Part shown: one piece after another, positions 372 to 30,677 of the stretch
Layout: each line of letters begins with the position of its first letter
How positions within the stretch are numbered: position 1 is the first letter of the stretch
From: a virus
DNA length: 64,000 bases
IMG/VR virus record: IMGVR_UViG_3300025015_000011
Coordinates: 102,690 to 166,689 of that record
Direction: 5' to 3' (one strand)
The notes under the pieces: generated by a model
Database searches by the model: none
What the model was told of the DNA's origin: nothing
What the model saw: only the letters and a program-made list of their open reading frames with translations
Position numbers and translations under genes: made by a program

Positions 372-379
372 TATTTATA
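372..379 (-). promoter_or_regulatory. T4-type late promoter TATAAATA upstream of the sheath gene
   Basis: Exact TATAAATA on the minus strand. Confidence 0.75.
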
Positions 380-980
380 TTTTATGCCAAAGTTCATCAA
401 GGTCTATTTTAGTATTTACTCTGATTCCATAATATTCTGTGCAGATTAACATTATTTCAGACCTTGAACGAAATCCATCTACTAAATTTTTATTGGTGTA
501 TTCACCAGATTCAACAAATTCTTCCATAGAACCATCAGGATATTCATCTTTAAGGATATCTTTAGCATAATCATTGGCATATAAGAAATCTTTAAATTCA
601 ACAAATACATCTGATATATGAGGGCTCCACCAATATGTATAACCATCTACTGGGAAGATTATATAAGGTTCTTTGCCTTTAGCATAAAATTGAGTATCCA
701 TTTCAGACCCAGTTGAAAATACTGCTTTAGCCCTTATATTAGATTCACCATACAATTTTTCAAAAGCAGCATTAAAATCTTCCTGCATTTCAGGACGGGA
801 GTTTTTAGGCTTTCTATCAATCCTTGGTACTAATTTTATAAATTCATCTGTTTGATTAGGTATGCCTCTATAAAGATAATATTGTTTTGACTCTTTTAAG
901 AATTGTGAACAGTCCTGTTTGATTAATTCAATAATATTCTCTTGATTTAGATCTTCTGTTAAAAATCTTTTAAAGTTCAT
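375..980 (-). CDS. Putative virion-internal ADP-ribosyltransferase-like protein (family A paralog)
   Basis: N-term MNFKRFLTE; YLYRG...AVFSTGS...YIIFP..Y.YWWSP...SEIML; paralog of the five genes at 20781-25292. Confidence 0.55.
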   Translation of the reverse strand: MNFKRFLTEDLNQENIIELIKQDCSQFLKESKQYYLYRGIPNQTDEFIKLVPRIDRKPKNSRPEMQEDFNAAFEKLYGESNIRAKAVFSTGSEMDTQFYAKGKEPYIIFPVDGYTYWWSPHISDVFVEFKDFLYANDYAKDILKDEYPDGSMEEFVESGEYTNKNLVDGFRSRSEIMLICTEYYGIRVNTKIDLDELWHKI

Positions 981-12290: not shown

Positions 12291-12422
12291 ATGGAAGAAA
12301 CAGTCACAATTTCGAAGAAGGAATATGAGAAGTTATTAAAGGATAGCAGATTTCTTCAAGCTCTAGAAGCTGCTGGTGTTGATAACTGGGAAGGTTATGA
12401 ATTTGCTTTTGAATCTGATTAG
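12291..12422 (+). CDS. 43-aa conserved phage protein (LEAAGVDNWEGY family)
   Basis: Below ORF-track cutoff; MEETVTISKKEYEKLLKDSRFLQALEAAGVDNWEGYEFAFESD, AAGGAG RBS. Confidence 0.75.
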   Translation: MEETVTISKKEYEKLLKDSRFLQALEAAGVDNWEGYEFAFESD

Positions 12423-14062
12423 ATAGTAATAGATATCCTCATCTCATATCTATTACTACCACAATCATATATCTTTCTAACTCCACATTTCTCAGTTAAT
12501 TCCTTTTCAGACAAACCATCTTGAGCTCTATATTTAAATCTACCTTCCCTGATTGTTCCGCCAGTATAAAAATAGTTAGGTTTGGTACTACCTATAAATT
12601 CAAAGCCATTAGTTGAATATACTAATCCCTCACCAAATCTTAAATCTGCATATGTTAATAAAGATTTAAATCCTTCTTTTTTACTCCACTCTAAAGCATA
12701 TTTAAGTAACTTTGAAAATCCCCCAACTACAGAAGTATTTAATTTGGAACAGAACCTAGCAATCTCTATAACCCTTGATTTACCTTTAGTAAATGGTTTC
12801 CTGAGAGTTAAAGTAGAAACAGTTTCATTCTCATCATTTACAAGAGAAAATGATTTAAGATAATTAGTATGCCCTGATATATGATTTGTATCTGTGAATT
12901 CTTTAACCTTTAGATCTTCTACTACTTTTAATTTTCTGGCAAATAATTTAGTTGGTGTAATACCCATTGAATTAATAATCATAGATTTGATTATTTCAGG
13001 TTTGAATTTCCATTCATCTTCAAATATTTGAATTAATTTTATTCCCCTTTCTTTTGCTAACAAATATTTATTAAGATGATAATTTTCATCATTGAAACTA
13101 TGCCAGTATAGGCCATGATATTCTATGCCTAATTTTAATTCTGGTATGTAAATATCTAATTCAAGTGGAGAAATAATCTTCTTAGTATTACTTAATACTT
13201 CTCCAGTATAAACACTTTGAACAAATTCTAATACTTCTTTCTCAGCTCGTGATATATTTCCACTTTGACATTTAGGGCAGAGATGGTTAGTTGTCCCTAA
13301 CATATTAACGAATTGAGAAATACAAACATTAGTGAGAGTACCATGTTTTAAACATTTTAACGGATACACTTCCAGTAACTGATTTATTCTTCCAAGTTCT
13401 TTTCTTTGTTGTGTTCTCAAATCACAAAATTCTTGCTCTGAAAGTAATAGCCCATATTCATTCTTTTCTTGTAGATATTCAATTATACGAGTATAGTATT
13501 CTTTATCCCCTTTAAGTATCTTATCAGGACATTGTCCAAAATTTTTGATGGTCATATTCCATTTTTTACTTAAAGTGAGAAGACCTTTCTCATGTATCCT
13601 TGCTTTTTCTTCAGGTGTTCTATTCGCATGAATATCTTTGAATTTATTTCTTACTTCAATAGTCTGAGATGTATAATCAACATTATATTTTTCTTTTACT
13701 GTTTTATGATAAGTTTTCTGTGCTTTCTCTCTTGAACCAGGAACTTGACTGGGATTAGTCACTTCATATTTTTCAAGTAAAGTTTTCTCCATACTTTTCA
13801 TTCTTTTAGAAATAATACCAGGGTCATTAGTAGCACATTTTTCACTGCAGTATTTTCTGAATCCATGTACTATATTTTCAAAAGTAGTATCTTTACCACA
13901 TAAACATTTACCTGCGGTAGAATCAATATAAAGTTTATAATAGTCTCCAACTGAATTGATATTTGGATGGACCTTCTTGAGATGTGATTTAAAATTGTAA
14001 ACTTCTTTTTGGCAAATTTGACAAAAAGAATAAGGTCTGCTGTGAGGTGTTTTACTTGACAT
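12419..14062 (-). mobile_element. Hef-like free-standing homing endonuclease
   Basis: N-terminal Zn motifs, KYEVTNPSQ repeats, ELDIYIPELKLGIEYHGLYWHS...LIQIFEDEW nuclease core, ARFCSKLN..VVGGFSKLL...IYDCG C-terminus; immediately downstream of gp23. Confidence 0.82.
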
Positions 14063-15520: not shown

Positions 15521-16318
15521 TTAAACTAATCTTGCCCATTCTTTTTCAAGTTCATCAGTTATGTGACCTGAACCAGTTGGGGAATAATCTTCTACAATTT
15601 GCTTCTTCTTTATAGAAACAACCTTATCAGACTTCTTAGGTTCAACTACTTCATCTTCAGTAAGAACAAGTTCCCTGACTGACTTAAATCTCTTCTCGAT
15701 ATCTTCATAAGAAGCACCTTCAAAGATTTTGGTAACTTTCTTCTTCTGGTCAAGTGTTAAGCCATTGCACTTCTCATTTAAGAGATACTTACCAAGAAGC
15801 TGTTCAGTCTTTGCTTCAAGAGCCATTTTCTCTGCTACTGCTTCATCCAGTTTCTTCCTGGAAGAAACAATTTCATTCCTGGCATCCTTGAGGAGACCAA
15901 AACCCTTATCATCTATCTTAAGACCTTTCTCATTGAAAGTCCTCTTGATGGATTCAACTAAGGGCTCATACACTTCTAGTTTGGCTTGGGCTTCAACTAA
16001 GTGCTGAGGAATGGCTTTGTTGATTGCAAAATCAAGATACTTGGATAGTTTGTCAACCATCTTCTCTTCAAACAGTTTAACCTGCTTGGCAACTTCAGTC
16101 TTCTTAGTAGTCCTAAGAGCTTTTATTTCCTCAGCAGCTTCCTTGAGAATACCCTTTAGTTCATCAACCTGAGCTTTAACAGAAGTTACTTCTGAACTTA
16201 CTTCAGAAGTCTTCTCTGTTACTGCTATGTTGAATGACTCAGTAATAGTATTCTTAAGGTCTTCATTTAACACGACTTTATTCTTTTCAAGAAATTTAAT
16301 CATTTTAGAAACAGACAC
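15521..16318 (-). CDS. gp22: Prohead core scaffold protein
   Basis: Coiled-coil with MVDKLSKYLDF, LTLDQKKKV; directly upstream of gp23. Confidence 0.85.
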   Translation of the reverse strand: MSVSKMIKFLEKNKVVLNEDLKNTITESFNIAVTEKTSEVSSEVTSVKAQVDELKGILKEAAEEIKALRTTKKTEVAKQVKLFEEKMVDKLSKYLDFAINKAIPQHLVEAQAKLEVYEPLVESIKRTFNEKGLKIDDKGFGLLKDARNEIVSSRKKLDEAVAEKMALEAKTEQLLGKYLLNEKCNGLTLDQKKKVTKIFEGASYEDIEKRFKSVRELVLTEDEVVEPKKSDKVVSIKKKQIVEDYSPTGSGHITDELEKEWARLV

Positions 16319-17005: not shown

Positions 17006-17283
17006 TATTTTTTATCCCACCCTAAAATTTTAACCTTAACAGAATATTCATCTCCTGTGGCAATTGAAATAATATCATCACCTAAATCTCTTACTAGTGC
17101 TCTACCTTTCATTGTTTGTATAAGAGCCTTTTTAGCATCTTGTACATCATCACCCTCTTCAATTGGCTCAATATCTACATCAAATTCATCAGGAACTTCC
17201 GATGTTCCTACTCCTGAATCTAATGATGGAAGAGTAGCAAGGTCTTCATTTAGAATTTTATCTATTCTATCTATTAATTTCAC
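17005..17283 (-). CDS. Small acidic head-cluster protein
   Basis: N-term MKLIDRIDKILNE. Confidence 0.6.
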   Translation of the reverse strand: MKLIDRIDKILNEDLATLPSLDSGVGTSEVPDEFDVDIEPIEEGDDVQDAKKALIQTMKGRALVRDLGDDIISIATGDEYSVKVKILGWDKK

Positions 17284-17960
17284 TTACTTTTAATCTCCTT
17301 AATGAATTCTTGTATAGCTTCAATTAAATATAACTGAGCATTATCTTTTGGAATCTTTTTAAATCTCTTCTCTAGACCTTTGACTGGAGCTTCAAAGACT
17401 TCTCCCTTTTCATTCATCAACCATTTTCTGTTCTCATATAAGGCTTCCATAAATGCGCCTGGGGCACTTGGGTCTGCAACTATATCCACAGTTATAAGTT
17501 TAAAGTCTTCTGAAACCTCTCCATCTTCTGCTACATCACCCAAGCCTCTTGAAGAAACTCCAAGTTGATAACCATCTTTGACGAGAGTCTGAGCAACAAG
17601 ACCCATCGGTGTATTAGCTAACTTGGCTTTACCATAAAACACATCACCTTCACATCTAAGTTCTTTTATATAGTGAGATATCCTATCAAGATTGACAGTT
17701 GGTGATTCTGGATGGTTAAGCTCTCCGCCAGCTCTGTTATTCTTTATCTTATCTGAGGTAAAGGACTGAACTTCCCTTTCAATTACATTCTTCTTATAGA
17801 CCCTGCCATTCTTATTTCTTTGTTCTGAAACCATGAATGGTCCTGCGAGATAAATAGATTTAGATTGTGCCCCAGTCCCATCAGATTCCATTATAGTTTC
17901 AGCTTTTAATAGCTTAGGGTCCATTATCTCAGACAGAAGTCTGAGAGGCTTAGATATCAT
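17280..17960 (-). CDS. gp21: Prohead protease
   Basis: NKNGRVY, GELNHP, LGVSSRGLG, VDIVADPSAPGA. Confidence 0.97.
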   Translation of the reverse strand: MISKPLRLLSEIMDPKLLKAETIMESDGTGAQSKSIYLAGPFMVSEQRNKNGRVYKKNVIEREVQSFTSDKIKNNRAGGELNHPESPTVNLDRISHYIKELRCEGDVFYGKAKLANTPMGLVAQTLVKDGYQLGVSSRGLGDVAEDGEVSEDFKLITVDIVADPSAPGAFMEALYENRKWLMNEKGEVFEAPVKGLEKRFKKIPKDNAQLYLIEAIQEFIKEIKSK

Positions 17961-20184: not shown

Positions 20185-20631
20185 TTATTTTAAATTAGTT
20201 AACTTGAAGCCAAAAGCTCCCTTTTCTCTCCAACCTATATAGAACTTAAACTTCCCTTGCCATGATATAAATGGTCTGAATAAGAAAACAACAAATATTA
20301 AAGCCCATATAATAGACCCATACCATAATGTATTTGCAAGTAGTAAAGCTAATATGATACTTTGTAACCTATCTGGAATATAAAAGAACCAAGTAAGATT
20401 GAGGCCTCCGCCTGTTTTAAATACTTCTCCAGGGGCAATTCCAAGTTGAGTCTTATCTTCTATATCTCTTATACCTATTATATAATTAGTGAAGTTATGA
20501 AGAGGATTCCTTAAATACATCCAATAGAATTGACGCTTCCGAAGTGGCCAAGTTTTCTCATACCAGTCTGGAGCCACTGGGTCATCATTTTTAAACCACC
20601 AGATAGGGTTAAGCTTCTGATACCATTTCAT
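20185..20631 (-). CDS. Trp-rich membrane-associated hypothetical protein (likely start MKWYQ)
   Basis: AAGGAG before ATG at 20631; WMYLRNPLHNF motif; hydrophobic segment. Confidence 0.6.
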   Translation of the reverse strand: MKWYQKLNPIWWFKNDDPVAPDWYEKTWPLRKRQFYWMYLRNPLHNFTNYIIGIRDIEDKTQLGIAPGEVFKTGGGLNLTWFFYIPDRLQSIILALLLANTLWYGSIIWALIFVVFLFRPFISWQGKFKFYIGWREKGAFGFKLTNLK

Positions 20632-20737: not shown

Positions 20738-20791
20738 TTATACTAAGATATCTTGTGTTCCTTCTGTTATTATATATTGCTTAAAGGTCAT
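20738..20791 (-). pseudogene. 17-codon tag-only remnant MTFKQYIITEGTQDILV
   Basis: Same N-terminal tag and same 11-nt overlap with the upstream gene as intact array members. Confidence 0.5.
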
Positions 20792-21368
20792 CTATTTGAC
20801 CTTTTCGTAATTCCACACTAGAATATATACGGTCTATCCAGTCCAAGACGACATAGTGATTATTACGCACAGCATAATACTTGTCACAAAGAAGCATTAT
20901 TTCATTACCAGAACTAATAGCCTTTAGTAAATCTGTATTAATAAAAGTATGACTATTAATAATATCTGCTACAATATAATCAGACATGTCTTCTAGCTCT
21001 CCATAAAGGTCGTCAATGGTTGGACTCCACCAATAAGAATAATCACCAATTGGAAATATATTATATAGGGTTCCAAATGCTATAGCATTATCAGTGTGAC
21101 CTGTGCAAAATACAGCTCTAGATCTTATGTTGTCAACATTATACTTCTTAGCAAATTCTACATTAATAATATCATGATGTGACTTTTTCGTGTCTAGTGG
21201 TTTTCTATTACTACGAGGACTTATCTGTTTAACAGAATCTACTAGGCCTTTCATACCTCTATATAAAGATCTATTTTCAGATTCCTTAAGGAAAGGCATA
21301 CACTCTTTTACAATATCTACAGCGATTTGCCTATTATAATCTTCTGTTATAAATGATTTAAAGTTCAC
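20781..21368 (-). CDS. Family A ART-like virion protein
   Basis: MNFKSFITE; SLYRG, AVFCTGH, YWWSP, GNEIML. Confidence 0.55.
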   Translation of the reverse strand: MNFKSFITEDYNRQIAVDIVKECMPFLKESENRSLYRGMKGLVDSVKQISPRSNRKPLDTKKSHHDIINVEFAKKYNVDNIRSRAVFCTGHTDNAIAFGTLYNIFPIGDYSYWWSPTIDDLYGELEDMSDYIVADIINSHTFINTDLLKAISSGNEIMLLCDKYYAVRNNHYVVLDWIDRIYSSVELRKGQIDDL

Positions 21369-21940
21369 CAGAATTTCCTTCCTATATATTTTAAAATATC
21401 ATGAGCTTCATAATGAACTACATAATATTCCTTACATAGAAGCATTATTTCATTACCAGTATCCAGTGCTTCTTCTAAGTTAGTATTAATATACCCATTC
21501 GTTGGTAATTTTATAAAATTATAAAGGATTTCTGGAGTGACAAGATCTAACTGCTGTACTGTCATAGTTAAATCTGGAATTCCTTTTGACCACCAATATG
21601 AATAACCATCTACTGGGAAAACCTCATAAACAAAATTACTATTAGCAAAATAATTGGCATCTCCATAATTACCAGTGCAGAATACAGCCCTGCTCCTTAT
21701 ATCCTTAACTCCATAAGCCTTTTCAAAAGCTAAATTATAATAATCATGTACCCTTTCTTCTGTATCCCGAGGGGTTCTATCTGACCTTGGAACCATCAGA
21801 TTTATCTGGCCTTTGTTGGATTTAAGGCCTCTATACATTTTACCAGCAGAAGAAAGTCCTTTTAGAAATTGAGAACAATTCTTTATTATATCGTCTGCTA
21901 TAGGGGTTATAGCTTCATTTGTATATTCTTTAAAGTTCAT
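21365..21940 (-). CDS. Family A ART-like virion protein
   Basis: MNFKEYTNE; KMYRG, AVFCTGN, YWWS, GNEIML. Confidence 0.55.
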   Translation of the reverse strand: MNFKEYTNEAITPIADDIIKNCSQFLKGLSSAGKMYRGLKSNKGQINLMVPRSDRTPRDTEERVHDYYNLAFEKAYGVKDIRSRAVFCTGNYGDANYFANSNFVYEVFPVDGYSYWWSKGIPDLTMTVQQLDLVTPEILYNFIKLPTNGYINTNLEEALDTGNEIMLLCKEYYVVHYEAHDILKYIGRKFW

Positions 21941-23405
21941 TATTTTCTATATAGCTTTTTAATTTAATATTAATAGCTTCAATGACCTCAGGTCCATTAT
22001 TGAATCCATATTGATATAATTGTTTTCTAAATGTTAAATTATCTTCTAAATCAAAAATGGTATCTTCCAGGCCAGGTAAATTATCTAGCCAATGTTGTAT
22101 GTCGTCTTTACCATAATGAGAATTATTATAAGTACCACTTAAAGGATTATTAATAGTATCAAATATATTATTTACTAAGGTTAAAGATTCTTTAACTACT
22201 TTGCTACCTTCTTTTGGATTAACCTTAGTTGGGAATGTATATTCAATCCCTCTTATGTCAGCACTGAACTTACCACCAACCCACTTAGCGGTTTCTGGCC
22301 AGGCAGAATAACCACCATCCCCTAAAGAGAATATTCCACCCTTGAAAGTACCATTCTTAAACCTAGCACCAGGCTTAAAGATACCATTTTCAAAGGTTCC
22401 TCCATTAAATACCCCATCTTGGAATATACCATTTTTGAATGTTCCGGCTAAGAATATTCCTTTGAAGTTTCCATCATACCATTCTCCTGTAAAGCCTACA
22501 TAATAACCCTGGTCCTTCAACTTAGTAAAGGTCCCTGAGAACTTACACTGGTCGATATGAGGGAAGTTCTTTCCCAGCTCAGCTAAGGTCAGTCCACCGT
22601 CAAGTCCTTTTATCATATCCTTTATCTTATCATAGTTTATTGCAATAGAGTCTATAGAATCATCATCATAAAGTCTAGGGTGTTTATCGAAAGTTCCAAA
22701 CAGTCCTTCTTGCTTCTCATCTATCCAATCCTGTACAGCTTCTTTAAATCCAGGAACAGTAGTACCATAAACCTTTCTTTCTGGAACTAGATAGACTTCT
22801 TCATTGTCATTTATAAATGGTTTAATAAGGAATCGTCCTATAGGATAATTAATATTCTTATCATCAGCATTAATGAGATATGCTATCAAAGAACCTTCTT
22901 TTATATCATATGCACAAAACTTGGATAAAGACCCAGACTTTAAATCCATACAAGAAGTCCAACCTCTATCAGTACTCATTCCAGCTATGTCATATGGATG
23001 TCTGGATATAGCTACTATAGCTGTTTGTAATCTTGATGTTCTTCTGACTGGGTCTGATATGAACTTCTGATAAGCTTCTTTATAATAATTATCCGCTTCA
23101 AACTTCTTCATAGCCTTTTGAAGTATAGAACCTATCTTGAAGACTCTCTTATCATCACCATCTGTCTTCTTGGCTAAGCCATTACCATAATCAACTACTT
23201 CAAAACCTTCATAATATAAAACAGAATTGACATTATTTGGAATTGGTAGTTCAAATTTATCATCCATCTTCTTCTTTAAAGGTAAATAGATTCTATACTT
23301 ACCACCAAACCACTCAGAGTATCTAGTCTTATCCCAGTTCTTAGCATACCTCTTGGCCGAGGATAAGCTTAATTTTTCATTAAGTAAAAAAGTTTTAAAG
23401 CTCAT
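21930..23405 (-). CDS. Family B tagged protein (SRHPYDIAGMSTDRGWTSCM domain plus Gly-rich pentapeptide-like repeats)
   Basis: MSFKTFLLNE; paralog of 26353-28074; GTFKNGIFQDGVFNGGTFENGIF repeats. Confidence 0.6.
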   Translation of the reverse strand: MSFKTFLLNEKLSLSSAKRYAKNWDKTRYSEWFGGKYRIYLPLKKKMDDKFELPIPNNVNSVLYYEGFEVVDYGNGLAKKTDGDDKRVFKIGSILQKAMKKFEADNYYKEAYQKFISDPVRRTSRLQTAIVAISRHPYDIAGMSTDRGWTSCMDLKSGSLSKFCAYDIKEGSLIAYLINADDKNINYPIGRFLIKPFINDNEEVYLVPERKVYGTTVPGFKEAVQDWIDEKQEGLFGTFDKHPRLYDDDSIDSIAINYDKIKDMIKGLDGGLTLAELGKNFPHIDQCKFSGTFTKLKDQGYYVGFTGEWYDGNFKGIFLAGTFKNGIFQDGVFNGGTFENGIFKPGARFKNGTFKGGIFSLGDGGYSAWPETAKWVGGKFSADIRGIEYTFPTKVNPKEGSKVVKESLTLVNNIFDTINNPLSGTYNNSHYGKDDIQHWLDNLPGLEDTIFDLEDNLTFRKQLYQYGFNNGPEVIEAINIKLKSYIENNEL

Positions 23406-23976
23406 TATCTAAATCCTTTAATAATTCATCATTTTCTTTTATAGGTATAGCATAATAAGAATCACACAGTAACATAACTTCAGTATATTCATATTTAGTA
23501 ATAGCCAAGGTCAAGTCTGTGTCAATATAAAGGCCTTTTTTAACAATGTCAACCATATCTGAAAAATCTTCTATTCCAAGGGTTCTTTCTGATAACCATT
23601 CAAACAAATCATTAATCTTTTTAGACCACCAATATTCATAATGCCCTATTGGGAATATCCTGAACATTTTACCATAATAATTATTATCTTTAGTTCCAGC
23701 ACAGAATACAGCCTGACTTCTAATATTATCTACACCATGAATCTCCTTAAAGGCTTGATTGAAAGAATTATGAAAGGATAGCCTAGTATGTTTTGGATAT
23801 CTATCAGACCTTGATACTATCTTATTCAGAAGTTTTCCTGGATGAGGACTTTTAATCCCTCTATATAGACCTAGATTACCTACTTCATTAATGAACATAG
23901 TACAATCCCTTTGAAGTGTAGAAAGGATTTGTTCTTGAGTAATCTCTTCTGTTATAAAGGATTTAAAGTTCATCAT
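23395..23976 (-). CDS. Family A ART-like virion protein
   Basis: MNFKSFITE; GLYRG, AVFCAGT, YWWS, YTEVML. Confidence 0.55.
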   Translation of the reverse strand: MMNFKSFITEEITQEQILSTLQRDCTMFINEVGNLGLYRGIKSPHPGKLLNKIVSRSDRYPKHTRLSFHNSFNQAFKEIHGVDNIRSQAVFCAGTKDNNYYGKMFRIFPIGHYEYWWSKKINDLFEWLSERTLGIEDFSDMVDIVKKGLYIDTDLTLAITKYEYTEVMLLCDSYYAIPIKENDELLKDLDNEL

Positions 23977-24076
23977 ATATTAATTATTTATGCAAGTCCT
24001 TCTTCTATTGAACATGTTTCATCAAGTAATATAAGTCCTTCCAAGCACGAAGGTCCTGTGCAGTCTGAGCAAGGTT

Positions 24077-24718
24077 TTAATGACTATCAGGAACTGCCCA
24101 ATAAGAATTACAAATGAACATTATCTCCACACCAGACTTAATAGCTGATACCAAGTCAATATTCTTATAGTTAGCCCATTTTATAAATTCCACTATGGAA
24201 GGATATATTAATTCATCTACTTCAGGGCTTTTAAACAAACCTTCAGCCCATTTATAGTAGACCCAGAAAGAGCCAGCCTTAGGATATAACGGAAACCATA
24301 TGTCTTCTGCATCCTTATCAAAGAATCTGGACTTAGTATGGTCAGCCCACTTCCTAGAATAGTTAATGTCTAACACAGCATCAGACCACCAATAAGAATA
24401 ATCACCAATTGGATATATTTTGAATGGTTGGCCAAATTGGTTAGTAGACCCTTTGTCTCCTGTAGCAAATACACATGAAGATCTCAAGTCCATAACACTA
24501 TGGACTTCTTCAAAGGCTTTATTGAATAAGCGCATTATGTGGTTGCCCATACCTTTGGGCTTCCTATCTTTCCTCACTGGTAGCTTGACTGGTTGGTTTA
24601 ACCCATCTTCAATCCCCCTGTACACTGCATAGCCGTGCGTCTCTTCAATGAACTTAGCTGAGTCATGATTTATTGTAGCATCATATAGTCCTTCTGTTAT
24701 AAATGATTTAAAGTCCAT
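24077..24718 (-). CDS. Family A ART-like virion protein
   Basis: MDFKSFITE; AVYRG, CVFATGD, YWWS, GVEIMF. Confidence 0.55.
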   Translation of the reverse strand: MDFKSFITEGLYDATINHDSAKFIEETHGYAVYRGIEDGLNQPVKLPVRKDRKPKGMGNHIMRLFNKAFEEVHSVMDLRSSCVFATGDKGSTNQFGQPFKIYPIGDYSYWWSDAVLDINYSRKWADHTKSRFFDKDAEDIWFPLYPKAGSFWVYYKWAEGLFKSPEVDELIYPSIVEFIKWANYKNIDLVSAIKSGVEIMFICNSYWAVPDSH

Positions 24719-25292
24719 CTAAGCCCTCAGCCACAGCGTAATATTCTTCACATTGAAAAAGGATTTCATTTCCACTTCTAAGACCCTTAGCTAAATCTTT
24801 CATCTTATAAGATGAGACTAATTTCTTCATGGCCTTTTGTTTATCACTCAGTTCAGGCCCGGCACCCTTATATTCTAATTCAGTCATAACAGCATCCCAT
24901 TCTATATAAGCATCTTCTACTTTAGGACTCCATATATAAGAGAAGTATCCAATTGGATATATTTTATAAACATCTCCATAATCATTAGCAACATCTATAT
25001 TACCAGAACTGACTACAGATATAGATCTTATCTTTGGAATATGGAACTTCTCCTCAAAAGCTTTATTGAATAAATTAAAGTATTCATTATTGCCCAACAA
25101 GGGCTTTCTATTCTTAATAACCTTAATCTTATATAGCCCAGGTATAACCCTTTTAAAGTATTTGGTATTAGCATAGCCTTTATATAACTCCAGGGCGTGG
25201 GACTCTTTTAGAAAAGGATAACAATCAGCTGATATTATCTTATTAATCTTATCAGGCTCATTATCTTCGGCTACATATGATTTAAAGTCCAT
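24708..25292 (-). CDS. Family A ART-like virion protein
   Basis: MDFKSYVAE; ELYKG, SVVSSGN, YIWSP, GNEILF. Confidence 0.55.
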   Translation of the reverse strand: MDFKSYVAEDNEPDKINKIISADCYPFLKESHALELYKGYANTKYFKRVIPGLYKIKVIKNRKPLLGNNEYFNLFNKAFEEKFHIPKIRSISVVSSGNIDVANDYGDVYKIYPIGYFSYIWSPKVEDAYIEWDAVMTELEYKGAGPELSDKQKAMKKLVSSYKMKDLAKGLRSGNEILFQCEEYYAVAEGLDGL

Positions 25293-26363
25293 CTAATCCA
25301 CCTTTATATTTATCTTAATACCATTCTTCTTCATCCATGTAGCAAAGTCCTTTTCAATCCATACATCTTCTATTACAGCTGGCACTGCACCAGTATCTAC
25401 TATAACTTCATTCTGAGCAAAGAATCTAAATTGTTTCTTGAACTTCATAGGGAATTCAGTAAAGTCTATTATGATATTATCGACTGGGACTTCTGCTCGT
25501 ACTACAAAGTTTATACTAGCTTCAGCTTGACCCTTAGTAAAGTTCTGAGCTATCTCTTTATGAGTAGACCAAGACGATTCTTTTCCTCTTTTAACAATTA
25601 CCTTTCCAGCTGGCACTTGGCCAAGTGTAATGCCAGCATATCTCTTTAACTTATCATTGACATCTTTAAATGTAACTTTGGAGTAATCACCCCAATCATC
25701 AAATTGAATTGAGAACCCTCTATAGAGAATCTTAAACTTATATGGTTTGGTTAAGGACTTCCAGTACTCTTTATGTTTAAGTCTCTTACCTGGGTCTTCA
25801 GTATATCTTATTAAGTCCTCTATATAATGCTCAGGTATATCAAATGTAAGGTCTGGTTTATCTCCAGTATGATACCTCTTAGCATTACCATCTACTAACT
25901 TAGCCTTTAACATAGTAGCAAATGGAATGTGGACTTCTCCTTTATATTCAGAAGCCAGGCCATCATATAGTTTAAAGAACTTGTCAGTATCTATTAGATG
26001 ACCCAGCATATAAGCAGACTTATCCTTTTTAAAGTATTTAGATAAGTCCCCAGCATCTACAGGCTTCCCAAAGTATTCATTAGCTTTAGCTATATCCAAT
26101 ACTTTATTCTTAATGAGTAAAGTAAAATCTTCTACACTCCAAGTAAATATCCTTTTAGCGTCTACCTCATATATGTAATTGTATCTAGAAGAAGCATTAG
26201 CAGAATGACCAAGTAAGGACTTATAGCTCTTTAAGGTATCTGCATATACTAGTATAATATGAGTATTCCCTAATTTAGCTAATCTTCTTGGTTCTATCTC
26301 GTCTACTTCTATATCTGAGGCTAAGTAATATTCCTCATTGAGTATAAATGATTTAAAGTTCAT
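25293..26363 (-). CDS. Tagged protein with C-terminal R-S-E ADP-ribosyltransferase domain (Alt/Mod-like)
   Basis: True start MNFKSFILNE at 26363; ILYRG...ESSWSTHKEIAQNF...AQNEVIV. Confidence 0.7.
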   Translation of the reverse strand: MNFKSFILNEEYYLASDIEVDEIEPRRLAKLGNTHIILVYADTLKSYKSLLGHSANASSRYNYIYEVDAKRIFTWSVEDFTLLIKNKVLDIAKANEYFGKPVDAGDLSKYFKKDKSAYMLGHLIDTDKFFKLYDGLASEYKGEVHIPFATMLKAKLVDGNAKRYHTGDKPDLTFDIPEHYIEDLIRYTEDPGKRLKHKEYWKSLTKPYKFKILYRGFSIQFDDWGDYSKVTFKDVNDKLKRYAGITLGQVPAGKVIVKRGKESSWSTHKEIAQNFTKGQAEASINFVVRAEVPVDNIIIDFTEFPMKFKKQFRFFAQNEVIVDTGAVPAVIEDVWIEKDFATWMKKNGIKINIKVD

Positions 26364-28074
26364 GGTCCTCTTTCCACTTAGCAAAATCAGTATAGGCCAA
26401 GTCCTTCTTAAGTAGTTTTTCAACATTAGTATGTAAATCACTTTCTTTTTCTACCCATTCAGAATACAGCTTAGTACTTTCAACATCATAAATGACCTTC
26501 ACATCATCCATCTTCACTTCATACTCACTACGAAAATCTTGGGTATCTTTCAGGAATTGGACCAGCAATGGATGTTTTAAATTAGCAGTCTCTTCATCCA
26601 TCTTATCAGACTCAGCATTTACTATCTTCTGTCTCTCAGACCAAGACATTCCATCTTTAATAAGGTCTTCTAGTCTCTTTTCAAACTTAAGCTCCTGTTG
26701 GGCTAATAGTTCTGTCAGGTCTTGGTCATACTTCTTCTTAAATGGGGCTATCTGTTTTTCATACTCAGCCGTCAGCTCATCAGTAGTACTTTTAAAGTCT
26801 TCTTTAAGATCGGAATTTAATTCAGTCTGCGCAGAAGTCAGCGTTCTTAGCTTCTGCGTTGCATCTGACTTATGATAATTTACTATCGCTCCAGCCTCTT
26901 GGGGATGGAGCTTGGTAGGGATAGTAAAATACTTAGACCCAACGACGACCTCAACCTTACCACTTATCCACTTAGCATCTGGATGGAAGTAAACTTCTTT
27001 AAGAACTATAGTAGCTCCATCTACAGTGCCACTAAGGAACTCCGCTTTTTGAATAATTCCACCACTGAAAGTCCCTCCTATTATTTGGCCACTGAAGTCC
27101 CCAGCCAGCCATTCCCCATCATAGAACTTAAGTGACTGTGTAACTTTGTTCCAGCCTATGACTGCATCTTGGAACTTAGCCTCTGCAGATAGTTGTTGGC
27201 CTAGTATCTCAAGACTAAGTCCATCTCTTAGTTCTCTCACTGACTTCTTAAGCTCATCCAGGTTTCTAATTATTATTGAATTCTTTTTTGAATCTTGATA
27301 GAGGTCAGGATGTATAGTAAACTTACCAAAGATTCCCTTCTGCTTCTCATCTAACCAATCCTGTACTACTTCAGCGAACCCTGGCATATCTGTACCATAG
27401 ACTTTAGGCTCTGGGACTAAGTAGACCTGTCCCTCATCTGAGATGAAAGGCTTGATAGCTATCCTTCCAATAGGGTGGTTGATATTCTTATCTTCTTTGT
27501 TGACTAAGTACGCTACTATGGTACCTTCCTTGACATCGTAAGCACAGATATGTCTGAACGTTCCATGATGGAGGTTCATGCAGCTTGTCCAACCTCGGTC
27601 AGTGCTCATTCCAGCTATGTCATATGGGTGGCGACTTAGTACTACCATCGCTGAGGTCTTCTTGCCACTTCTCTGAGGGTCTGACTGGAAGTTCTTAAGC
27701 TCTTTCTCAACCTTAGTCTTGAATCTAGAGTCTTGAGTCTTCTTAGCTGCTTGCTGAAGAACTGAGCCTATCTTCAAGACTCTCCTATCTTTGCCACTGG
27801 CGCCTGACCTCTTAGCGGTTCCAGCTCCATAGTCTACTACCTCATAGCCTAAGTAAGTAAGTATTTCTTCTAAGTCGGCTGGGACAATGGCTGCTTTCTT
27901 CTGAGCCTCTGCTGGAAGTTCCAAGTAGATGCGGTACTTACCACCAAACCACTCTGAATAGCGCTCCTTAGCCCAGTTCTTAGCATACTTCTTGGCAGTA
28001 CTGAGGGCTAACCGTTCTAGTACTAGCCAGTCCTTGAATGCTAGCCTCTCACTTAAGGAAGGACTTTTACTCAT
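26353..28074 (-). CDS. Family B tagged protein with C-terminal coiled coil
   Basis: AFKDWLVLE tag; RYSEWFGGKYRIYL and SRHPYDIAGMSTDRGWTSCM identical to 21930-23405. Confidence 0.6.
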   Translation of the reverse strand: MSKSPSLSERLAFKDWLVLERLALSTAKKYAKNWAKERYSEWFGGKYRIYLELPAEAQKKAAIVPADLEEILTYLGYEVVDYGAGTAKRSGASGKDRRVLKIGSVLQQAAKKTQDSRFKTKVEKELKNFQSDPQRSGKKTSAMVVLSRHPYDIAGMSTDRGWTSCMNLHHGTFRHICAYDVKEGTIVAYLVNKEDKNINHPIGRIAIKPFISDEGQVYLVPEPKVYGTDMPGFAEVVQDWLDEKQKGIFGKFTIHPDLYQDSKKNSIIIRNLDELKKSVRELRDGLSLEILGQQLSAEAKFQDAVIGWNKVTQSLKFYDGEWLAGDFSGQIIGGTFSGGIIQKAEFLSGTVDGATIVLKEVYFHPDAKWISGKVEVVVGSKYFTIPTKLHPQEAGAIVNYHKSDATQKLRTLTSAQTELNSDLKEDFKSTTDELTAEYEKQIAPFKKKYDQDLTELLAQQELKFEKRLEDLIKDGMSWSERQKIVNAESDKMDEETANLKHPLLVQFLKDTQDFRSEYEVKMDDVKVIYDVESTKLYSEWVEKESDLHTNVEKLLKKDLAYTDFAKWKEDHEL

Positions 28075-29091: not shown

Positions 29092-30630
29092 TTATTGTAT
29101 CTTTTCCTTTTCTATGTTCGGATTCCCTGTGAGTAGAGGTTTGTTTTTCTTGGCCTCTTTATCTTCTTCTGGTGATTCTTCCTCTTCTTCAGCATCTGGG
29201 GCTTTGCCTGTTGCTTGGTTCTTGAGCATTTCCTTTACCTCTTTAACCTTGTCATCTGAGAACTTCATTATATCTCTATAAAGGAATTCTACTGGGAATA
29301 TATCATCCTTGAACTCAATCAAGTCCTTCATTATATCTATACGGGCTCTATACATTTCAAGGTCTTTCAGTTCTTTCCAGGCATTGTTCTCATTGAACTG
29401 AATAGATATCTTAGTCCTGTTAAGGTTATATTGTTTGTACAGTCCTTTTAATTGAAGGTGAGTAAAGAATACTTGATAAATGAATTCTAAGAATCTGCCA
29501 CGGATTTTATCTACCCACTTGGCAAATTTAACTTCTTCCCTTGATACTTCATTAGACCTACCAGGGTTATATGGTGTTTCAGGTGTAAGTCTCAGCTGAG
29601 GAATCTTTAGAGCTTTATAAAGCTTCTTGAGAAAATATGTTATATCTTCTATTTGTCCAAGATTATCTGCACCTGGAAGAGTTTCTACCCTTGAGCCTTG
29701 ACCATTATCTCTTGTAGGGAAGTAAAAAGATTCTTCCATGTTCATCACATCTTTACCTGAGTCAATGTCACCAGTAGAGGGATTGTATATTTTCTTATTC
29801 CTCGTCCTCGCTATTAGTGATTTGATATATTCATCTGCTTTATTCTTCGGAAGCTTACCCACATCTATATAGAATACTCTACGTTCTGGTGCCCTGGTTA
29901 TCCTGTAAACAAGTAAAGCATTCTCCATCCACTTTAACTGACGATAAGCTACCTTAGCTCTTTCAAGATATGAATAAGCCAAGTTCTTTTGGAAGTCTAC
30001 TATCCCTGAATTGATATAAGCTATCTGAGCTGGTTCAAATACTATTTCATTTCCTGACCTTCTCGCCTTTTGTGGTGATTGTGAAACTATTGATGTTAAG
30101 TCCTGAGTGAACTTGATTGGGTCTTGGTTATCATCCCAATCAACTTTCATTGTGTATGCTGGTAAATACTGAACACCTTGAAGTCCTTTTTCTTTCTTTT
30201 CAGGATTGACCATGAGCTCAGCATATAGTTCACCTTCTATATAGAACTTCCTGAACAAGTCACTGGCTGTAGTATCAAAGTCAAGAACTTTATTGATAAC
30301 ATAATCAAATTCCTTTTGAAGATTTTGAACAACATTTTCATTCTCAGCCAAGTCTGTATCATTTATTCTTAATGAAAGAATCTGATTATCTTCATCAGGC
30401 GATATTGCTTCAAATACAATTTCATCTACAGCATCACCTATCTCCGGGAATTGGCTCATTTCTTTATACTCTTGATGAAGAGAGCGTTTTTCAGATGTGA
30501 TTGCATAAATGGTGTTGGAAAGATACTCGTACCCAGTTGCGCTTATTTCTGAGACGCCTTGAGCCTCTCCTTCATTCTTGTGATAGGGGGTCAGGCTTTT
30601 GAAAATCTTTGATAATAAACCTTCACTCAT
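29092..30630 (-). CDS. gp20: Portal vertex protein
   Basis: YRITRAPERRVFYIDVGKLPK, ETLPG..NLGQIEDI.YF.KKLYKAL.IP, REEVKFAK. Confidence 0.97.
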   Translation of the reverse strand: MSEGLLSKIFKSLTPYHKNEGEAQGVSEISATGYEYLSNTIYAITSEKRSLHQEYKEMSQFPEIGDAVDEIVFEAISPDEDNQILSLRINDTDLAENENVVQNLQKEFDYVINKVLDFDTTASDLFRKFYIEGELYAELMVNPEKKEKGLQGVQYLPAYTMKVDWDDNQDPIKFTQDLTSIVSQSPQKARRSGNEIVFEPAQIAYINSGIVDFQKNLAYSYLERAKVAYRQLKWMENALLVYRITRAPERRVFYIDVGKLPKNKADEYIKSLIARTRNKKIYNPSTGDIDSGKDVMNMEESFYFPTRDNGQGSRVETLPGADNLGQIEDITYFLKKLYKALKIPQLRLTPETPYNPGRSNEVSREEVKFAKWVDKIRGRFLEFIYQVFFTHLQLKGLYKQYNLNRTKISIQFNENNAWKELKDLEMYRARIDIMKDLIEFKDDIFPVEFLYRDIMKFSDDKVKEVKEMLKNQATGKAPDAEEEEESPEEDKEAKKNKPLLTGNPNIEKEKIQ

Positions 30631-30663: not shown

Positions 30664-30677
30664 TATAAATATTTATA
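30664..30677. promoter_or_regulatory. Palindromic bidirectional late promoter TATAAATATTTATA
   Basis: Overlapping TATAAATA on both strands between divergent gp20 and gp4. Confidence 0.75.

Follow-up and report, generated by a model that had tools for sequence, protein, structure and literature searches.

What are the small, repeatedly duplicated proteins encoded between the portal and prohead protease genes of a distant T4-like myovirus, and what might they do for the phage? The question arises from a 64,000-nucleotide stretch of viral DNA (the window; positions 102,690 to 166,689 of the 166.7-kb IMG/VR record IMGVR_UViG_3300025015_000011, estimated to be 72% complete), from a phage whose large terminase is ~40% identical to cyanomyovirus terminases. 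A sequence-only reading of the window had pointed to six diverged paralogs, five in this region and one at 375–980, and had proposed, by comparison with the motifs of R-S-E ADP-ribosyltransferases (ARTs), that they form a divergent ART clade delivered with the phage DNA. All six are present on the minus strand with the motifs it had listed. Our preferred answer, to which we give about an even chance, is that the paralogs are packaged and ejected enzymes with an ART-type fold and an NAD+-type substrate.

The six paralogs are 191–213 amino acids (aa) long, share 36–44% mutual identity and 24 invariant columns in an alignment of the six, and match one another at E-values of 1e-19 to 1e-40 in a within-genome search, which found no seventh copy in the 166.7-kb record. 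Paralog 1 (20781..21368, 195 aa) has a GTG start overlapping the upstream TGA and consists of the leader MNFKSFITE followed by an ART-like domain; it is the protein that we modelled. Paralogs 2 (21365..21940, 191 aa, leader MNFKEYTNE), 3 (23395..23973, 192 aa, MNFKSFITE) and 4 (24077..24718, 213 aa, MDFKSFITE) follow, the last with the longest insert between core strands 4 and 5, and paralog 5 (24708..25292, 194 aa, MDFKSYVAE) reads YKG in place of YRG and has lost the strand-1 Arg. Paralog 6 (375..980, 201 aa, MNFKRFLTE) lies apart, between the large terminase and tail sheath genes. Shared motifs are [LMV]Y[RK]G, R..R.P and VF[CSA][TAS]G followed by a helix ending in [FY][GA], and further on [FY]P...Y.Y[WI]WS and xE[IV][ML]. 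The range 20781–25292, which had been proposed as an array of paralogs, holds five of them but also includes an unrelated 491-aa gene at 21930–23405. A megablast comparison of the region with the phage collection gave no match.

The family quite probably has an ART-superfamily fold, judging from the predicted structure of paralog 1. The AlphaFold2 model, built on a 131-sequence alignment, has a mean predicted local distance difference test score (pLDDT) of 94.1 and a predicted template modelling score (pTM) of 0.88, and shows six core strands in ART order: 35–39 (strand 1, LYRGM), 86–89 (strand 2, VFCT), 100–106, 111–114, 157–160 and 164–168. An N-terminal helical pair precedes strand 1 and a short extra strand follows it; an R-x-x-R-x-P loop and then a helix precede strand 2, which is followed by another helix; a helical insert (121–153) separates strands 4 and 5, and N155-E156 stands directly before strand 5. 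With an exhaustive aligner, the best structural match is BC2332 (2AUA), with Z 6.5 over 122 residues and, in a repeat, Z 6.8 over 124; the superposition covers the whole beta-core at a root-mean-square deviation of 3.4–3.9 Å and 8–9% sequence identity. BC2332 is classified in SCOP as d.166.1.6 (BC2332-like) within the ADP-ribosylation superfamily (PMC3000352), and ProFunc matched its site to those of diphtheria toxin and exotoxin A (PMC3024214). Arr comes second (Z 4.7), followed by exotoxin A, cholix and Spx (Z 3.8), AvrPphF (3.5) and three DarT entries (2.9–3.4), and by PARP1, PARP4, PARP13, tankyrase, SAIP and chelona toxin. ART-fold proteins account for 15 of the 50 top rows and are the only ones that align the core (model residues ~28–172), while the non-ART rows align 50–76 residues and cover terminal helices only. 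As a control, a neighbouring 356-aa ART with textbook motifs scores Z 4–6.2 against classical ARTs in the same aligner. The sequence-only reading's expectation of an ART-like fold is supported by prediction and structure comparison.

Three charged residues are invariant across the family. Among 131 family members (paralog 1 numbering; mean column identity 19%), R55, D120 and E156 are 100% conserved, G38 99%, R82 and Y164 98%, P57 97%, R37 96%, and F87 and Y142 95%; position 89 is T or S in 85% (T 62%, S 23%), and the leader residue Glu9 is conserved in 85%. By strand order in the model, R37, T/S89 and E156 lie on strands 1, 2 and 5, the canonical ART order. Charged residues kept invariant over such deep divergence favour catalysis or ligand binding. 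The strands are the best-conserved segments of the family, and of the ~22 residues inserted in each sequence, ~16 are located between strands 4 and 5. In classical ARTs, the target-recognition loop sits between these same strands. Since the paralogs differ mainly in this insert, they probably have different host targets. Two near-invariant cysteines, C23 (97%) at the end of an N-terminal helix and C161 (92%) at the end of strand 5, could form a disulfide, a metal site or a catalytic site, and fall outside every explanation offered here.

Packaging of the paralogs through a T4-style head-targeting leader is well supported. The six proteins begin with the 9-residue pattern M-[ND]-F-K-x-[FY]-[ILVT]-x-E, and T4 IPII and IPIII start with MKTYQEFIAE (translated from the T4 record) where the paralogs have, for example, MNFKSFITE, the common pattern being aromatic-x-x-F-I-x-E. 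The first 10 residues of T4 IPIII suffice for capsid targeting; positions 4 and 7 of the T4 leader are required for targeting, positions 8 and 10 (Glu) for processing by gp21, and foreign proteins fused to the leader are packaged and then enter the host (PMC9026906). At least 13 open reading frames (ORFs) of this genome, the six paralogs among them, begin with the leader, and their bodies are unrelated. Other phages have versions of their own, M[RK][LF]K[QR]Y[IL]xE in the metagenomic phages L006 and L008 and M[RK]W.QL[TN]E in Agrobacterium phage Atu_ph07, and there too the version is common to family and non-family genes.

The position of the array fits such a role. Five of the paralogs lie between the gp20-like portal gene (29092..30630, minus strand), which forms the upstream boundary of the array, and the gene for a gp21-type prohead protease (17280..17960, minus strand; Peptidase_S77 at 101 bits against a 27-bit cut-off; PHROG 207, E 4.5e-57), after which come the genes for a gp22-like head scaffolding protein (15521..16318, minus strand) and the major capsid protein. 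The protease presumably cuts the leaders after Glu, and the scaffolding protein is the presumed docking partner of the leader. The genes for the portal, protease, scaffold, capsid and sheath are each preceded, at a distance of 20–40 nt, by the T4-type late promoter motif TATAAATA; the copy just upstream of the portal gene stands at 30670..30677 (minus strand), and the array lies downstream of it in the same orientation. In a close relative, L007, the synteny is the same, with the array and then the protease.

Family members have been detected in purified virions of a cultivated phage. Atu_ph07 carries 13 profile matches to the family, 12 of them in a single cluster, and the profile search identified AUZ94865–94875 plus AUZ95167. 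To two decimals, the masses computed for AUZ94866–94876 are those given for gp54–gp64 in PMC6102473 (Supplementary Table S5), and AUZ95166 and AUZ95167 (39.66 and 30.60 kDa) match gp407 and gp408 (39.67 and 30.60 kDa). All seven of the seven full-length members (gp54, 57, 60, 61, 62, 63 and 408) were detected in purified virions by electrospray ionization tandem mass spectrometry (ESI-MS/MS), each with 6–15 unique peptides and 25–45% coverage, and the divergent members gp55, 56, 58 and 59 were detected likewise (PMC6102473). As for the earlier proposal of delivery with the DNA, the leader, the gp21-type protease, the portal-to-protease location and the Atu_ph07 virions all speak for it, while ejection itself would follow by analogy.

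The family to which the paralogs belong, PHROG 11975, is very large and has no curated model. Its HMM (hidden Markov model), labelled as of unknown function, matches all six paralogs at E 8.5e-23 to 7.9e-36. Pfam gave no match, including to any ART model, for the six paralogs or for the 131 family members, and NCBIfam gave none for the family, in line with the sequence-only reading's impression of an apparently uncharacterized family. PDB sequence searches with 6- and 131-sequence profiles returned chance-level matches only (xylanase, aIF2-alpha). An exhaustive profile search recovered 6,315 clusters at 50% identity at E<=0.001, and 4,802 at E<=1e-10. Among isolated phages, the family is carried only by the jumbo myoviruses Atu_ph07, SCTP-2, RsoM2USA and Xoo-sp13. 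Multi-copy arrays also occur in L007 (4 copies), L006 (5) and L008 (6), and copy number between phages ranges from 1 to about 12; the related-locus search with alignment A1 gave two loci only. The domain is also found in tandem, in 2–5 copies and without a leader, in giant metagenomic proteins of up to 2,645 aa (P0043 at 2,645 aa, P0052, P0066, P0098 and P0114, none with internal leaders), and these tandem copies indicate that the ART-like domain is a self-contained module. The giant proteins resemble polyvalent virion proteins.

The leader also heads a gene that is, by its motifs and predicted structure, a classical R-S-E ART. This gene (25293..26363, minus strand), directly adjacent to paralog 5 and missed by the sequence-only reading, was listed as an ORF of 382 aa; with its true start, the ATG at position 26363, the protein measures 356 aa and has the leader MNFKSFILNE and a C-terminal R-S-QxE ART domain. 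Its family invariants are R215 (in YRG), ESSWS at 262–266 and Q317-x-E319 (QNE). The predicted model (pLDDT 73) matches Vis best (Z 6.2 over 147 residues) and also TreX, C3bot2, C2-I, iota-like toxin, VIP2 and Certhrax, among others, ~45 of the 50 top rows being ARTs. Pfam gave no match and neither did tblastn against the phage collection; some 10 relatives turned up in a set of 5.8 billion proteins, none from isolated phages. Because this protein carries the leader, ART cargo is probably loaded by the leader system however the paralog family is read.

Other leader-bearing genes are diverse. The 491-aa protein (21930..23405, minus strand; PHROG 17056) has the leader MSFKTFLLNE and a pentapeptide-like repeat region and is unrelated to the paralogs; its 573-aa homolog (26353..28074, minus strand; PHROG 17056) is the first large gene of the array, and its only leader-like stretch, LAFKDWLVLE, begins ~11 residues from the start. 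The two share an N-terminal region with the motif GMSTDRGWTSCM, and the repeat of the 491-aa protein gives a weak match to the SV2 luminal domain. Four leader ORFs lie outside the window (G000:C1:21390-21923, 21925-22584, 20203-20481 and 99980-100699); among their products are a cytidylyltransferase-like nucleotidyltransferase (PF01467) and a Zeta-toxin/AAA_33 P-loop kinase, and these look, from their sequences, like further candidate packaged enzymes. In the unrelated metagenomic phages L006 (8683–14748) and L008 (5096–12070), 8–10 consecutive genes start with M[RK][LF]K[QR]Y[IL]xE, and in these arrays members of the paralog family stand beside a Zeta-like kinase, an HD-domain protein and uncharacterized proteins. 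Leader-tagged cargo arrays thus appear to be a general feature. An HNH/homing-endonuclease gene (12419–14062, minus strand; 547 aa, PHROG 3339/559) lies directly downstream of the major capsid gene.

The cassettes of the array meet at junctions of a common form, at 21930–21940, 23395–23405, 24708–24718 and 26353–26363. Within the leader codons ATG-AAC/GAC/AGC-TTT-AAA, read in a different frame, lies the TAA that terminates the preceding gene, whose product consequently ends in -EL or -GL. Such a conserved 12-nt junction could favour shuffling of cassettes through recombination.

Clade assignment within the ARTs is split, with motifs that are R-S-E-like and structural neighbours of the BC2332, Arr and diphtheria-toxin type. 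Membership of the R-S-E clade, which the sequence motifs had suggested, is not supported. The six paralogs lack a Q/E-x-E motif, reading GNE, GNE, YTE, GVE, GNE and RSE, with Gly, Tyr or Arg standing two residues ahead of the invariant Glu (family consensus S-x-N-E). The equivalent of 'STS' is weak, strand 2 offering only F-x-[TS]-G, with Ala in one paralog. Comparison by hhalign of the paralog family with T4 Alt gave a probability of 0.2%, and with the neighbouring R-S-QxE family 5% between profiles and 0.7% with a single sequence; the sole local alignment to the latter, LYRG over LYRGF, was not significant. Among the listed matches to the paralog model, the R-S-E toxins C3, iota, VIP2, CT/LT and ART2 are absent, and pertussis toxin alone appears, at Z 2.2, an absence that is still compatible with membership of the clade. 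The missing motif and the reduced strand 2 also weigh against the ART-enzyme reading as a whole, as do several further points. In paralog 5, the strand-1 Arg is replaced by Lys (R37K). Pfam, PDB and hhalign searches gave no profile-level link to any known ART family, and Foldseek of the paralog 1 model against the PDB gave no match at E<=0.001. The structural Z scores are modest, all <7, and the aligner warns that Z <8 may reflect a shared arrangement only. The clustering of R37, T/S89 and E156 in one pocket is predicted from strand order. The Atu_ph07 virions were purified with polyethylene glycol and 131 proteins were detected, so that contamination is possible (PMC6102473). Finally, leader cleavage and ejection are extended to all family members by analogy.

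The mechanism that we propose builds on what the analysis shows, namely paralogy, a leader that resembles that of T4, a protease gene, conserved gene order, conserved residues and a predicted ART-like fold, and on the virion association published for homologs. We infer the cleavage of the leader, ejection, NAD+ chemistry and the targets. The paralogs would be expressed late, together with the head genes, and the leader would dock each protein on the scaffolding core while the prohead assembles, in the manner of the T4 IPII and IPIII leader. The gp21-type protease would then cut after Glu9 to leave a ~21-kDa acidic protein inside the head (mature paralogs have a pI of 4.8–7.8), which would be ejected with the DNA and act in the host before any phage gene is expressed. 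R37 on strand 1, T/S89 on strand 2 and E156 on strand 5 would form the site for an NAD+-type substrate, with R55, D120 and R82 as helpers, and the variable strand 4–5 insert would set target specificity.

Several of the points raised above fit other explanations as well. One possibility, which we consider unlikely, is that the paralogs are packaged and ejected but are not enzymes: an ART-derived fold used for binding only would make them stoichiometric inhibitors of host defence proteins, as T4 IPI* is of GmrSD, or alternatively sponges for NAD+-derived immune signals, with the paralogs covering different targets or ligands. T4 internal proteins are a precedent for cargo of a capsid-targeting sequence (CTS) that acts by binding (PMC9026906), and the missing Q/E-x-E motif and R37K in one paralog also speak for this reading; the high, variable copy number (4–12 per phage) fits stoichiometric action, and a predicted, conserved Arg-rich pocket (R37, R52, R55 and R82) would suit a nucleotide ligand too. 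However, the invariance of R55, D120 and E156 across 131 sequences at 19% mean column identity is more typical of catalysis, and inhibitors of fast-evolving host proteins are usually without such invariant charged residues. Distinctly unlikely, in our judgement, is a misleading ART resemblance, with the paralogs being enzymes of some other, non-NAD+ reaction and R, D and E serving different chemistry. The Z scores below 7 and the lack of a significant Foldseek match in the PDB are compatible with this, as are the unexplained near-invariant Cys pair (C23 97%, C161 92%) and the residues R55 and D120, invariant yet outside the canonical ART triad. Against it, the two best structural matches are both ARTs, ART folds make up 15 of the 50 top rows and alone align the core, strand order and the positions of R37, T/S89 and E156 match the ART template, and the genuine ART used as a control falls in the same Z range.

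T4 itself raises a further explanation. Its portal-to-protease interval holds the core genes 67 and 68, and the present array fills the same interval with proteins that bear a core-targeting leader. They could therefore be prohead core or assembly components with no host role, analogues of gp67 and gp68 that fill or shape the head interior, an account to which we give little credence. Phages differ in how many copies they have, from 1 to ~12, and here one of the six lies outside the head module; the domain, predicted to be globular with conserved charged pocket residues, also occurs leaderless and in tandem within giant proteins; and the same leader is found on a classical ART, a Zeta-like kinase, a nucleotidyltransferase and an HD protein. 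Variable copy number and enzyme-rich leader cargo together speak against a structural role alone. We also considered DNA condensation, as by the basic T4 internal proteins, and rejected it on the pI of the mature paralogs.

Packaged ARTs as a concept were known beforehand, from T4 Alt and from a survey that proposed them as widespread in myoviruses (PMC9503650), and so were CTS cargo proteins, from the T4 internal proteins. Four features appear to be new: the family is huge and unnamed, with an ART-like fold yet without a sequence link to known ARTs; it forms multi-copy arrays; it is coupled to a leader of the CTS type well beyond the T-even phages; and it connects with a set of neighbouring 'hypothetical' proteins of the Atu_ph07 virion. 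In its main text, the jumbo-phage survey does not cite the Atu_ph07 cluster proteins. The broadest form of the enzyme reading, which we put slightly short of an even chance, is that the family is an unrecognised ART clade of >6,000 clusters, the commonest cargo of the leader system, of which 4–12 diversified copies are injected as an enzymatic first strike, and, as part of the same joint proposition, that this holds across T4-like and jumbo myoviruses with a portable 9-residue leader. Copy-specific recognition inserts might direct the proteins to defence proteins, nucleic acids or NAD+-derived immune signals.

PHROG 11975 belongs to the larger phage protein families that lack annotation, and in at least one jumbo phage it contributes visibly to the virion proteome. 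If active, its members would be a major new class of injected effectors, would account for a set of jumbo-phage genes now listed as 'hypothetical virion proteins', and would offer a natural, portable leader with which cargo could be brought into non-T4 capsids. Activity can be tested directly, Atu_ph07 being cultivable and its host genetically tractable.

Comparison with known systems places the family between ARTs and head-targeted cargo proteins. BC2332 of Bacillus cereus is, like the paralogs, a small single-domain protein; it is a bacterial protein of unproven function with a diphtheria-toxin-like site (PMC3024214), and its relation to the paralog family is undetectable at the sequence level. 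The phage family differs from it in having Arg instead of His on strand 1 and a capsid-targeting leader. The minimal ARTs of the H-Y-E side, namely Arr (a rifampicin ART), DarT (an ssDNA ART) and the catalytic domains of the diphtheria toxin/exotoxin A group, align with the paralog core (~28–172) at weak scores and have H-G on strand 1, whereas the paralog family has R-G, adds invariant R55 and D120, and carries a helical insertion ahead of strand 5. The 356-aa neighbour shares leader, array and strand-1 YRG with the paralogs, but it has ESSWS and QxE, both missing from the paralogs, and matches R-S-E toxins almost exclusively. We know of no relationship between the paralog family and the ejection-protein families of SPN3US and phiKZ. 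SPN3US families A and B and the phiKZ inner-body proteins are also expanded virion-internal paralogs of variable copy number in phages with a gp21-type protease, with N-terminal propeptides cut after Glu (PMC5694885); unlike for the paralog family, no enzymatic fold has been proposed for the SPN3US families. T4 IPI, IPII and IPIII have a leader of the same length class and pattern, one leader on unrelated cargo, and, as in this phage, a gp21-type protease; they are virion-associated, as are the paralog homologs of Atu_ph07. These T4 proteins are described as basic (PMC9026906), while the mature parts of the paralogs are acidic to neutral, unrelated to them, and predicted to have an enzyme-like conserved pocket. 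T4 Alt, at 682 aa against ~195 aa for members of this multi-copy family, is an ART that enters a T4-type head, is cleaved there by gp21 and reaches the host by injection (PMC9026906, PMC9503650), which is the concept that we propose here.

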